Source: an uncultured delta proteobacterium
GTDB taxonomy: Bacteria > Myxococcota_A > Polyangia > Polyangiales > Polyangiaceae
Assembly: GCA_963841435.1 (NCBI GenBank)
Contig: CAWJCS010000006.1
Coordinates: 608,001 to 672,000 of the forward strand
Length of the DNA stretch: 64,000 nucleotides
Direction of reading: 5' to 3'
In this document: positions 20,811 to 55,024 of the stretch, piece by piece
Numbering within the stretch: the stretch's first letter is position 1
Layout: each line of letters begins with the position of its first letter
Program-made: the position numbers and the translations under genes
Notes under the pieces: model-generated
Seen by the model: the letters and a program-made list of their open reading frames with translations, nothing else
Told to the model about the DNA's origin: nothing
Database searches by the model: none

Positions 20811-20999
20811 CTAGCCCGTGGTGTCGATCTTGATGACCTCGCGCGCCTTGTAGTGGCCGCAGGAGGGACAGACCCGGTGCGGCACCATGGGCGCCGAGCA
20901 GTTCGGGCACGGCACGATGTTCGGCGCGGTCACCTTGTCGTGCTGCGCACGACGCATGTTGCGTCGGCTACCGCTCTTTCTGCGCTTCGGTACGGCCAC
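20811..20999 (-). CDS. rpmF: 50S ribosomal protein L32
   Basis: MAVPKRRKS..RRA, CPNC...HRVCPSCG. Confidence 0.97.
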   Translation of the reverse strand: MAVPKRRKSGSRRNMRRAQHDKVTAPNIVPCPNCSAPMVPHRVCPSCGHYKAREVIKIDTTG

Positions 21000-51068: not shown

Positions 51069-52391
<1,323 letters not shown>

Positions 52392-52454
52392 CGGCGCTCG
52401 GCCGACAGCGTAACCCTTCTTGGACGGCGCCGCAGCGCGGCCGCCCCACCGGCG

Positions 52455-52721
52455 CTACTTCTGCTTCGACTTCGCGGCAGACGAAGCGATGCGGGAGGTC
52501 ACGCGCCCAGCGGTCTTCTTTGGGACGACGCCCTTGCTGGCGGCGCGGGCGAGAGCGCGCTCGGCCGTCAGCACGAGCTCCTTGGCGCCCGCCTCACCGG
52601 CCTGGATGGCGTGGCGCGCCTTCTTGAGGACCGTACGCAGGGAGCTCTTGACGGCTCGGTTGCGGGCCGTGCGCGTGATGCGCTGACGGTTGCGCTTTTG
52701 GGCGGAGGGATGATTGGCCAT
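52455..52721 (-). CDS. rpsT: 30S ribosomal protein S20
   Basis: MANHPSAQKRNRQ...RNRAVKSSLRT...AASKGVV.KKTA.R..SR. Confidence 0.96.
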   Translation of the reverse strand: MANHPSAQKRNRQRITRTARNRAVKSSLRTVLKKARHAIQAGEAGAKELVLTAERALARAASKGVVPKKTAGRVTSRIASSAAKSKQK

Positions 52722-52731
52722 GGTGTGCTCG

Positions 52732-52899
52732 TCAGGTCGCCTTGCCCGGCTTCGCGTCCGGGGCCTTCGGGTCGTAGCCCTCGGGTTGTAGCGGGAACTT
52801 GGGGGTGCCACCGCGGGCCGCTGCGCGCTTGCGCGCTGCCCCGGCGCCACGCGCGCGAATGTTGCGGCGGCGTTCGGTTTGACGGGTCGAAGAAACCAT
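52732..52899 (-). CDS. Small basic protein (55 aa), not in ORF track, upstream of rpsT
   Basis: MVSSTRQTERRRNIRARGAGAARKRAAARGGTPKFPLQPEGYDPKAPDAKPGKAT; mostly G/C third positions; stop 10 nt before the rpsT ATG. Confidence 0.72.
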   Translation of the reverse strand: MVSSTRQTERRRNIRARGAGAARKRAAARGGTPKFPLQPEGYDPKAPDAKPGKAT

Positions 52900-52921
52900 G
52901 GGGGGGCCTTTGGGGCCCGCG

Positions 52922-52949
52922 ACTATGTCACCAAGCGCCCCATTGTCAA
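52922..52949 (-). promoter_or_regulatory. Sigma-70-type promoter for small ORF-rpsT
   Basis: Minus strand TTGACA, 16 nt, CATAGT, with extended -10 TG. Confidence 0.6.
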
Positions 52950-52993
52950 CAAGGCGCGGGGCCCTGCTCGCCAGGGGGCGGCTCGCGCGGCCC

Positions 52994-54280
52994 TCACGGC
53001 GGCCGGACGGTCACACCCAGGCTGAAGGTCGGCGCCGCGAAGGGCTGCACGCGGGCCTTCCTGAGCGCCGACTCGATGCATGCCGCAGCCGGCGTGCCCT
53101 GCGCGGGCCCCCCGACCGAGACGCTGGAGACCTCTCCGCTCGACCCGAACACGAGGGTGGCGCTCGAGGGTTTGGGCTCGCCCGCGATGCACGAGCGGGC
53201 TGCGCCGAGCACCGCACCCACGGCGGCCTGAGCGGCACCGGCGGACGGGCGATCGGCGATGCCGCTGTCGCGATCGAGCTCCGCTGGCTTGAGCCCCGCG
53301 GGCTCCCGTGTGGTGGGCTTCGGCGTCGCGGTCGCGGCCGGTTGGTCCTCTTCGAGCACGACGCGCTCCGCGGCGACGGCGCGATGGCTCGGCGAGGGCG
53401 CCGCGTGTGCGTCGGCGACCGGGGCGATCGCACGCTCGGGGCGCGGCAGCGCGTCGAGCGCGACACCGCGAGGCTCCGGCGCGGTCGTCGCGACTTCCGC
53501 CGTCGTCCCCTCGACGTACGCCGGCTCGCTGGCTGCGCCCTTGCCCGGTGTGCTCGTCACCGTCGGGCGCGGCCCGCCGAGCGAGGCCGGGGCCGGCTCC
53601 GGTGCGCGGGCCGTAGCGATCGCGACGGTTTGCGGCTGGCGCTGGCTCGCGATGTACAGGCCGAACCCGGCCGCGAGCCCCACGGCGGCGATCGCGACGC
53701 CAATCCACGGTCCGCGAAGATCGGTCACGCGCTGCGCGTGCGCGGGCCTCACCGTCGTCGCGGCTCGGGCCGACGGCGGTGGCGGCGCTTCCGGCGCCGG
53801 CTCTGCCTGCGAACGCTGCTTCGAGGCGAGCGCCAGTGACTCTTTCGCGATGCTCGCCTTCTCGGCCGACCCACGGCGCGCGACCGACGCGCGCGCGAGG
53901 TCGGCAAGACTCACGGTCTCGCGCGCGCTCTCCGGCTCCGCGCCAGCCTTGGCGACGGCACGCGCGGGCTCTGCAGTCGGCGCAGACTCCGCGGTCGCCG
54001 CGAGCTCTGCAGTCGGCGCGAGCTCTGCAGTCGGCGCGAGCTCTGCAGTCGGCGCAGACTCCGCGGTCGGCGCGGGTTTCACCTCGGGTCCCTCCATGGC
54101 CGCCTCGAGCTCCGTGATCGGCGCCGCGAGGAGCGCCTCGTCGGTCTCACCCGCCGCGCCGAGGCGCTCGCCGATGGCCCGCCCGAGCCCGTCCCAGTCC
54201 GGCTCGCGGAGCGGCAGCTCGGCGGCCATGAGCTCGGCGCGCACGATGAGCTCGCGGTCCGGCAAATCGTCGTCGCTCAT
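52994..54280 (-). CDS. Bitopic membrane protein coupled to ECF sigma (putative anti-sigma) with C-terminal TonB-C/AgmX-like domain
   Basis: ATGA overlap with the sigma stop; TM WIGVAIAAVGLAAGFGLYI; ARSC...F..SG.V..V.V.G......ACI...R.ARV.PF. Confidence 0.75.
   Translation of the reverse strand: MSDDDLPDRELIVRAELMAAELPLREPDWDGLGRAIGERLGAAGETDEALLAAPITELEAAMEGPEVKPAPTAESAPTAELAPTAELAPTAELAATAESAPTAEPARAVAKAGAEPESARETVSLADLARASVARRGSAEKASIAKESLALASKQRSQAEPAPEAPPPPSARAATTVRPAHAQRVTDLRGPWIGVAIAAVGLAAGFGLYIASQRQPQTVAIATARAPEPAPASLGGPRPTVTSTPGKGAASEPAYVEGTTAEVATTAPEPRGVALDALPRPERAIAPVADAHAAPSPSHRAVAAERVVLEEDQPAATATPKPTTREPAGLKPAELDRDSGIADRPSAGAAQAAVGAVLGAARSCIAGEPKPSSATLVFGSSGEVSSVSVGGPAQGTPAAACIESALRKARVQPFAAPTFSLGVTVRPP
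53966..54074 (-). repeat. In-frame 18-bp tandem repeat, 6 copies of A(P/A)TAE(S/L/P)
   Basis: APTAES-APTAEL-APTAEL-APTAEL-AATAES-APTAEP; identical gagctctgcagtcggcgc units on the + strand. Confidence 0.9.
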
Positions 54281-54867
54281 GCTTCCTCGAGATCTTGTGT
54301 GTGGCCGCGCGACGCCAGGTAGGCGCGCAGCTTGCGGCGCGCTTCGTGGACCCGCCACGCGATCGTTCCTTCGGGGCAACCGAGCACCTCGGAGGCCTCG
54401 GCGTGCGACAGCCCGTCGATGCCCACCAGAATCAGCGTCGTGCGCAGCGTGTCGCTGAGCTCGTTCATGCCGTCGAGCAACGCGAGAGCGAGCTGTCGAT
54501 CCGCCGTCTGCTCGGCAGGGCTCGCGGGGCTGCCGCGCGCCTCGACGAGCAACCCCTCGATGCGTGAATCATCGGGCGGCGACGACGTGCGTTGCGTCTT
54601 GCGCGAGCGGAGGGCGTTGAGCGACAGGTTGACAGCGATGCGGTAAATCCAAGTGAACGGCTCGCTCCGCCCGTCGAAGCGCGAGAGCGCGCCGTAGGCC
54701 CGCACGAAGGTCTCCTGCGTCACGTCCTCGGCTTCCGAGGCACTGCGTAGGAGGTGAGCCGTGAGGCGGAAGATCCTGCGCTGGTGGCGTCGAACCAGGG
54801 CGCCGAAGGCTTCTGCGTCACCGCCGCGGGCCGCCTCCACCAGCTCTCGGTCGGATTGATGAGGCAT
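54277..54867 (-). CDS. ECF RNA polymerase sigma factor
   Basis: DAEAFGALVRRH, AEDVTQETF, F.TWIYRIAVN, GLSHAEASEVLGCPEGTI..RVHEARRKL. Confidence 0.94.
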   Translation of the reverse strand: MPHQSDRELVEAARGGDAEAFGALVRRHQRRIFRLTAHLLRSASEAEDVTQETFVRAYGALSRFDGRSEPFTWIYRIAVNLSLNALRSRKTQRTSSPPDDSRIEGLLVEARGSPASPAEQTADRQLALALLDGMNELSDTLRTTLILVGIDGLSHAEASEVLGCPEGTIAWRVHEARRKLRAYLASRGHTQDLEEA

Positions 54868-55024
54868 GTGGGCCGCTCTGCGCGGGCGAAAAACCGCACT
54901 CTGCGGCACGAAAAGATAGTTCAACACCAATCGGTTCGACAACCGGCGCGCCGCATTCTTGGCTCCGGGTGCTTTACGCCCCCTTCGCGAGCCCTGCGCC
55001 GCGCTTCCGGCCCCCCGCCCGGCC

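Follow-up and report, generated by a model that had tools for sequence, protein, structure and literature searches.

The 239-nt gap that precedes rpsT in this Polyangiaceae genome raises the question of whether it holds a gene and, if so, whether the gene product works on the ribosome. The sequence-only reading of the window (the whole 64,000-nt stretch analyzed here) had proposed that the gap contains a hidden ORF, missed by gene callers, whose very basic product would be a lineage-specific ribosome-associated protein co-expressed with S20.

The small ORF and its relatives

A clean ORF of 55 aa is present in the gap, on the minus strand at 52732-52899 (ATG to TGA, stop codon included; start ATG at 52899, TGA at 52734-52732), and its translation is identical to the peptide reported earlier. 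It belongs to an uncharacterized Myxococcota small-protein family. The range first given for the feature, 52732-52949, comprises the ORF together with its leader and promoter. ORFs of this size are unremarkable here: the window, with a G+C content of 0.69, contains 411 ORFs of at least 55 aa in six frames, and an ATG ORF of at least 55 aa arises in 161 of 5000 shuffles (~3%) of the gap upstream of rpsT. Third codon positions are mostly G/C, as had been claimed; as evidence this is weak, with G+C values of 0.71/0.67/0.78 by codon position against 0.64/0.57/0.86 in rpsT, and the third-position excess is small. Such figures would suit a frame that is not a gene: a chance product of high G+C where the DNA specifies a non-coding leader RNA for rpsT. 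Since ORF size alone is within chance, gene status was judged by comparison across genomes.

The frame was found directly upstream of rpsT in 22 of 23 same-genus loci (own genome included), and the 23rd locus has 29 nt of upstream sequence. S20 in these loci is merely 55-67% identical; the frames have 50-59 codons, start with MVSSTRQ(T/S)ERRR and contain TP.F..HP.GY. Across the family, an ORF of 50-73 aa was recovered from 73 of 75 loci, the other two being a locus that was too short and one that failed the start pattern used. The 70 unique coding sequences differ in length by whole codons (in-frame indels); their third positions vary freely, and at invariant residues all synonymous codons occur (Ser3: TCG 23, TCC 22, TCT 21, TCA 3; Thr5: ACC 25, ACG 25, ACT 13, ACA 6; Gly41: GGC 30, GGG 19, GGT 17, GGA 4). 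Mean column identity in this set is 0.77/0.78/0.60 at codon positions 1/2/3. The median pairwise dN/dS, for which a value below 1 had been named as a check, is 0.36 (1800 usable of 2415 pairs), and together with the conserved frame and the synonymous variation this marks the ORF as a true coding gene on which purifying selection acts.

When 1.84 billion representative proteins were searched exhaustively with an HMM, 171 clusters (50% identity) were returned at E <= 0.001, which also argues against a chance ORF. As to a leader RNA, an Rfam scan of 52300-53300 at a permissive E-value threshold gave chance-level matches only (best score 18.7 bits against a gathering score of 35, in an unrelated family), and RNAalifold on 23 of the long leaders described below yielded 0 consensus pairs, so that a conserved leader element is not demonstrated. 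The frame kept in relatives and the codon-level data refute the chance reading, to which we assign a vanishingly small probability. Judged from these codon patterns, it is at least nearly certain that the small ORF is a real, translated and selected gene.

The distribution of the family was surveyed with profile A1, made from 110 of 120 listed homologs, ten with longer annotated N-termini being left out. This profile matched 291 of 301 genomes of the family Polyangiaceae (198 of 200 high-quality genomes; 86 of 89 genera) and 186 of 201 genomes of the order Polyangiales (22 of 24 families), tallies that include the unpublished genomes G316, G292 and G424, one matching genome each; no other result depends on these three. 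Matches in both sets are nearly always one per genome, and the genome studied here likewise has a single match. At the level of the phylum Myxococcota, A1 matched 114 of 301 genomes and the broader profile A2 148 of 301; about half of the sampled phylum has no detectable homolog, and among the genomes searched, A2 gave no match in some lineages (f33, 0/26; f47, 0/19; f48, 0/10). These counts agree with the proposed clade specificity, the protein being limited to Myxococcota lineages. Being single copy and near-universal within its clade, it resembles the clade-specific small ribosomal proteins in this respect.

The ORF is less hidden than the sequence-only reading supposed. The exact protein and 157 relatives of 30-97 aa are already in a public protein collection, where those relatives that have a name at all are called 'hypothetical protein'; by record title and protein name, the close relatives belong to Polyangiaceae and Polyangiales. 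Identical proteins carry the label 'hypothetical protein' in Sorangium cellulosum, Sorangium spp., Chondromyces crocatus, C. apiculatus, Polyangium aurulentum and Minicystis rosea; gene callers therefore do find the small ORF, contrary to the earlier claim, though no name is given. Our literature search on myxobacterial small and ribosomal proteins, the Sorangium proteome, and locus tags and accessions returned no mention of the protein. The locus tag is absent from one supplement of the So ce836 RNA-seq paper (PMC10128143), whose other supplements might hold expression values. The family is uncharacterized and near-universal in Polyangiaceae and Polyangiales.

Promoter, leader and initiation region

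The TTGACA/extended -10 promoter described just upstream of the small ORF was confirmed, with matches at 10 of 12 promoter positions. Its -35 hexamer TTGACA lies at 52944-52949 (minus strand), and the extended -10 element TGaCATAGT at 52922-52930 (minus strand) consists of TGa, the end of the 16-nt spacer, and the -10 box CATAGT (52927-52922). This sigma-70-like site is the sole one in a 1-kb region, where 50 shuffles gave a mean of 0.0. In 56 of 69 related loci, a TTGACA-N16/17-(C/T)A..(T) pair, perfect or nearly so, lies no more than 90 nt from the start codon, compared with 8 of 1380 shuffles; these conserved promoters score at least 9/12 and mostly read TTGACA-N17-CATAGT/CATATT.

Between the -10 box and the ATG, the 22-nt 5' leader reads CGCGGGCCCCAAAGGCCCCCCC (52900-52921, minus strand), and transcription of the operon would start at about 52915. 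The leader contains AAAGG, a weak Shine-Dalgarno (SD)-like sequence, at 52911-52907. An SD-like 4-mer at -17 to -5 of the small ORF occurs in 47 of 69 related loci, compared with 14% of random positions. In several loci lacking such a 4-mer, the -10 box is just 10 nt from the ATG; this distance was seen in seven of the 69 promoter-scanned loci and in the Sorangium-type loci, and it predicts a leaderless or nearly leaderless mRNA.

Other upstream regions differ in layout. In the 60 nt upstream of the small ORF in loci L191-L195 (genomes G149, G086, G151, G126 and G110), only a G+C-rich 10-mer, often GCGCGCCCCC, separates the promoter TTGACA-N16/17-TAGAAT/TAGACT/TATGAT from the ATG, which predicts mRNAs with either no leader or one of 3-4 nt. 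L083, L084, L087, L091, L095, L098 and L110 share this promoter layout, and the arrangement of promoter and ATG is seen again in the distant relatives L201 and L205. At the other extreme, 35 loci have leaders of ~40-60 nt, for example L015:1915-1963(-), L040:1654-1705(-) and L046:1657-1700(-). Each of these starts with CCC(T) and individually folds into a 5'-proximal G+C hairpin, the sequences of which differ; 13 of the 35 have a stretch of 4-7 T after the hairpin, just 5' of the SD (CGAGG/GAAGG).

The start of the reading frame has features of its own. Codon 2 (52894-52896 in the window), Val2, is GTT in 53 of 70 unique coding sequences, a rare codon type at 69% G+C, and A/T-ending codons (CAA, GAA, ACT, TCT) are frequent among the first nine codons. 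This pattern suggests nucleotide-level selection on the start region. Codon usage of the small ORF as a whole is nearer to that of 18 ribosomal-protein and elongation-factor genes than that of any of 3078 background ORFs, and its resemblance to this set falls at the 96th percentile of size-matched chunks (rpsT, 99.9), a comparison limited by the weak codon bias of this genome.

Linkage to rpsT and the start of S20 synthesis

The gene for ribosomal protein bS20, rpsT (88 aa; PF01649, 72.5 bits against a cut-off of 29.5), occupies 52455-52721 on the minus strand, stop included, with its ATG at 52721-52719. As had been noted, 10 nt (52722-52731, minus strand) separate the TGA of the small ORF from this ATG, and the spacer is without a canonical SD. 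The two-gene arrangement, the promoter and the spacing bear out the proposed co-expression with S20 from one promoter in this genome. On this layout, the small ORF and rpsT form a predicted operon of two genes, the small ORF first, under a sigma-70 promoter that is close to the consensus.

To describe the linkage in relatives, we used several samples. In a sample of 119 unique family loci, biased towards close relatives, rpsT is at most 150 nt downstream in 95, and at most 25 nt downstream in 76 of these 95. Of the 95 linked loci, 38 have a spacer of 1-10 nt, 37 one of 11-25 nt, 19 one of more than 25 nt and a single locus one of -1 nt, with junctions of the types TGATG, TGAGCCATG and, in Sorangium-type loci, a TAG overlapping the AGGAG for rpsT. 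The closest named MAG loci are linked in 77 of 78 cases, as are all five large complete genomes with proteins identical to the Sorangium, Chondromyces, Polyangium and Minicystis records. Spacers of 42-59 nt in L023, L027 and L029-L031 carry a short hairpin (GACGC-loop-GCGTC type) directly after the small-ORF stop, which might fix the proportion between the two cistrons or serve for processing.

Among 40 Polyangiaceae genomes, chosen from the profile-match list to span genera and hence not random, 21 have rpsT directly downstream, and 19 have no rpsT within 1.2 kb. Neighbors of the unlinked loci vary (34 of 53 ORFs scanned), CstA being present in 5 of 20; no class IV aminotransferase was found near these loci. 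A tree of 70 unique peptides falls into two halves (support 99/92) and is otherwise weakly resolved because it is based on 56 columns only. All 39 members of one half are linked; the other half contains 20 unlinked and 11 linked members. The tree needs four changes of linkage state, and well-supported branches force a minimum of two of them.

Outside Polyangiaceae, an S20 gene was found near the small ORF in none of 30 loci from other families and classes. Neighbors there were surveyed by scanning 58 of 107 picked ORFs. In several Polyangiales families, genes for a TPR protein of ~1000 aa and a class IV aminotransferase precede the small ORF in the same orientation; in other classes the neighbors are holB, SppA and an unnamed, conserved divergent 278-aa protein that matched no family in NCBIfam. 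EF-P, RF3, TruA and Dus occurred once each. The TPR-aminotransferase pair stands 5' of the small gene in L052, L058, L059 and L061, Aminotran_4 alone in L057, and the TPR protein alone in L053 and L060. We take the aminotransferase and holB contexts to resemble the pabC...holB region of E. coli. Co-encoding with ribosomal or translation genes thus comes to 95/119 unique loci in the biased family sample, 21/40 across genera and 0/30 outside the family. Synteny with rpsT, the main argument for a ribosomal role in the sequence-only reading, is therefore confined to part of Polyangiaceae and gives way to non-ribosomal neighbors elsewhere. Because the genes are unlinked outside the family and in 19 of 40 genomes inside it, the linkage could reflect promoter sharing without a common function.

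These distributions also bear on whether the small ORF is a regulatory leader peptide (uORF) that serves solely to control translation or transcription of rpsT. The small ORF does fill the rpsT leader and end 10 nt before the rpsT start, and linked rpsT genes have no room for a promoter of their own and use ATG. Against this, the same protein is encoded apart from rpsT in 30 of 30 non-family loci and 19 of 40 family loci, selection acts at the amino-acid level over the whole sequence with synonymous sites free, and the gene is near-universal as a single copy. A uORF of rpsT would stand only before its regulated gene and be largely unconstrained in sequence, and neither is the case here. Since most lineages encode the small protein away from rpsT, it is not a leader peptide in our judgment, and we consider that role very improbable.

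The rpsT start codon varies with linkage. We compared start codons over loci L009-L038, L039-L050, L071-L195 and L206-L210. All 100 unique linked loci start rpsT with ATG. Among 14 loci scored as not linked, it starts with GTG in 9, TTG in 1 and ATG in 4, most of these ATG cases being linked loci whose small ORF escaped the search pattern; in confirmed unlinked loci the start is GTG or TTG in 10 of 11, a correlation that may rest on few evolutionary events because kin are not independent. In five unlinked family genomes that were examined, rpsT starts with GTG in all, and four of the five have an rpsT promoter of their own, TTGACA-N16-TA..(G/T)T, with a leader of 33-74 nt.

In PMC10931766, rpsT of E. 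coli is described as monocistronic, with S20 autoregulation believed to depend centrally on the weak UUG start of the gene. The downstream gene, bS20, is the same in both systems, and the stand-alone rpsT of Myxococcota resembles the E. coli arrangement: it has a promoter to itself, a leader, and a start codon of the weak GTG/TTG type. Linked Polyangiaceae rpsT differs in being a second cistron with ATG, mostly 0-25 nt behind the small ORF. From the 10-nt spacer without an SD and the switch of rpsT from GTG/TTG to ATG, we infer coupling: in linked genomes, S20 initiation would be handed to termination-reinitiation from the small ORF, and the small protein and S20 would consequently be made in step. 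Translational coupling is thus the likely mode of rpsT initiation here.

The protein and its possible function

The 55-aa protein has a mass of 5.9 kDa and no Cys. The claim that it is very basic proved correct, with a pI of 11.72 and 14 K+R against 4 D+E; 10 of the 14 basic residues fall within the first 31 positions. Family members have a pI of 10.3-11.8, and Cys occurs in 1 of 70. AlphaFold2, given the family alignment, models a single helix over residues 4-30 and an extended tail (mean pLDDT 79.7, pTM 0.39). Small size, strong basicity, the predicted helix and tail, and a build without a Cys-based fold are all features of small ribosomal proteins.

The family core reads M-[VA]-S-x-T-x-x-T-x-x-R-R ... 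G-[KR]-x-x-K ... G-T-P-x-F-P-[IV]-H. A set of 96 diverse members shares MVSxTxxTxxRRxxKxxxxGKxxK......GTPxFPIHPE, in which F35 is invariant and at least 90% retain T32 and P33, and the PEGYDPKAPDAK tail is typical of Polyangiaceae members. Proteins of 51-59 aa from further Myxococcota families (L196-L205; f26, f28, f36 and f44) have only the N-terminal module in common, MAS.T..T...RK.K....G..RK, and C-terminal halves of two other kinds, ..RIQSEK.LE.ALGE.. and ..ST.SAAELF..LGEPG.PAP. They point to a wider superfamily of small basic proteins.

As had been supposed, the protein falls in no known family. The window protein matched none in Pfam or NCBIfam at E <= 10. With the 96 diverse members, the best Pfam E-value was 0.015 and no ribosomal-protein family was matched, the sole ribosome-named Pfam entry being RAMP4 (2 members, E 0.27); NCBIfam gave nothing for these members either. 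Sequence-profile searches of the PDB with A1 and A2 gave a best E-value of 9.7 in one case and 0 hits in the other, and Foldseek of the model against the PDB a best E-value of 7.4. In the ESM Atlas, only unnamed clusters were reached at 0.96, and the nearest named one (bL32c, 0.80) was at chance level.

The searches of Pfam, NCBIfam, PDB and Foldseek showed no homology to the bTHX, bS22 or bL37 families of small ribosomal proteins. bTHX (Thx) of Thermus and relatives is very small, highly basic and clade-restricted, with little globular fold, and is found on ribosomes. The family studied here is alike in size class and charge and differs in sequence. E. coli Sra (stationary-phase ribosome-associated protein, rpsV), a basic protein of ~45 aa that is loosely ribosome-associated and not essential, offers a model of a non-core ribosome-associated small protein. 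In contrast to Sra, no ribosomal Pfam family is matched among the 96 members at E <= 1, and the small gene has a strong housekeeping-type promoter. Actinobacterial bS22 and bL37 are lineage-specific small ribosomal proteins of late discovery (PMC6133939, PMC10081302 and PMC10085706). According to its title, PMC10081302 places bS22 at 16S helix 44, which bS20 also contacts (PMC10931766). Unlike these two, the family has a hypothetical ribosomal location, and the PDB profile searches were empty of homologs though mycobacterial ribosomes are in the PDB. Our literature search, which included cryo-EM of the M. xanthus ribosome, found no myxobacterial ribosome structure.

In our preferred reading, the small protein may be a clade-specific ribosome-associated protein of the Thx/bS22/bL37 kind, possibly on the 30S subunit, whose N-terminal 27-residue basic helix would bind rRNA. 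Consistent with this are its small size, basic charge, predicted helix and tail, single-copy near-universality, housekeeping-type promoter, ribosomal-protein-like codon usage and inferred coupling to a primary 16S-binding protein. Against it speak the non-ribosomal neighborhoods in other families and in part of this one, the lack of homology and the absence from about half of the phylum. We hold ribosome or rRNA binding to be plausible, at somewhat below an even chance. Replacement of a missing small ribosomal protein was also considered and rejected for seven of them: S21, L30, L36, L34, L35, L33 and L32 are all present in the genome, and with respect to these the small protein would therefore be an addition, not a replacement.

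Alternatively, the protein may be a non-ribosomal housekeeping small basic protein, binding the nucleoid, DNA or RNA in general, behind whose strong promoter rpsT came to lie. The linkage would then date to the ancestor of part of Polyangiaceae and be a convenient co-expression with no shared complex. In most lineages the gene stands alone with its own promoter, its older neighborhoods are non-ribosomal, rpsT has its own promoter at four of the five unlinked genomes' loci, and members L050, L051 and L101 carry Lys/Ala/Pro-rich tails as on histone-like proteins, all of which agree with such a role. It accounts less well for the tight spacing (often 3-12 nt, once a TGATG overlap) and the changed rpsT start, which suggest selected stoichiometric coupling, and for the tree half whose 39 members are linked without exception. 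This is the main rival, and we rate it only slightly below the ribosomal reading.

A more specific form of the ribosomal reading was also weighed. It holds that the small protein is a new ribosomal protein of much of Myxococcota, bound to the small subunit near bS20 and 16S helix 44, and that its Sorangium-type gene controls S20 synthesis by coupling, in place of autoregulation through a weak start, with a single regulatory site for both proteins. Taken as a whole, this proposal is rather unlikely, although it deserves consideration.

The conserved tail allows another interpretation, that the protein is an adaptor or regulator acting on a protein partner through GTPxFP[IV]H(PEGYD), with the basic helix just a tether. 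The tail motif is the most conserved part (invariant F35; T32 and P33 as above) and is predicted to be extended with a pLDDT of ~75-80, as is often the case for short linear motifs, and the distant relatives keep the N-terminal helix and differ in the C-terminal half, as if a partner module had been exchanged. However, conserved gene neighborhood suggests no partner, and conserved extended tails are typical of rRNA-threading ribosomal proteins as well. We regard an adaptor role as improbable.

Sorangium/Chondromyces-group myxobacteria are major sources of natural products. The small gene is near-universal, single copy, strongly promoted and everywhere 'hypothetical', and because its apparent operon with S20 is present in cultured model genera, it is a concrete and cheap target. 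If ribosomal, the protein would add a phylum-level ribosomal protein and provide an example of ribosomal-protein autoregulation rewired through an upstream cistron; if not, it would still be an uncharacterized core small protein of a large bacterial lineage. The ORF also offers a clean benchmark for small-ORF calling in high-G+C genomes.

Several observations were made on neighboring and related genes. At L107:1387-1731(+), S20 itself has a C-terminal Ala/Lys/Pro repeat tail (115 aa in total), similar to the tails on the small proteins of L050, L051 and L101. Upstream of the operon in the window (52994-54379 and 54277-54942, both minus strand) are genes for a 461-aa protein that matched nothing in Pfam and for an ECF sigma factor; the 461-aa protein may be an anti-sigma partner, because its C-terminal 55 residues are conserved in relatives. 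Downstream of rpsT lies a gene for a Ser/Thr protein kinase (51069-52391, minus strand). The same window contains rpmF (ribosomal protein L32; PF01783, 88.7 bits) at ~20829-20996 on the minus strand, far from the small ORF.
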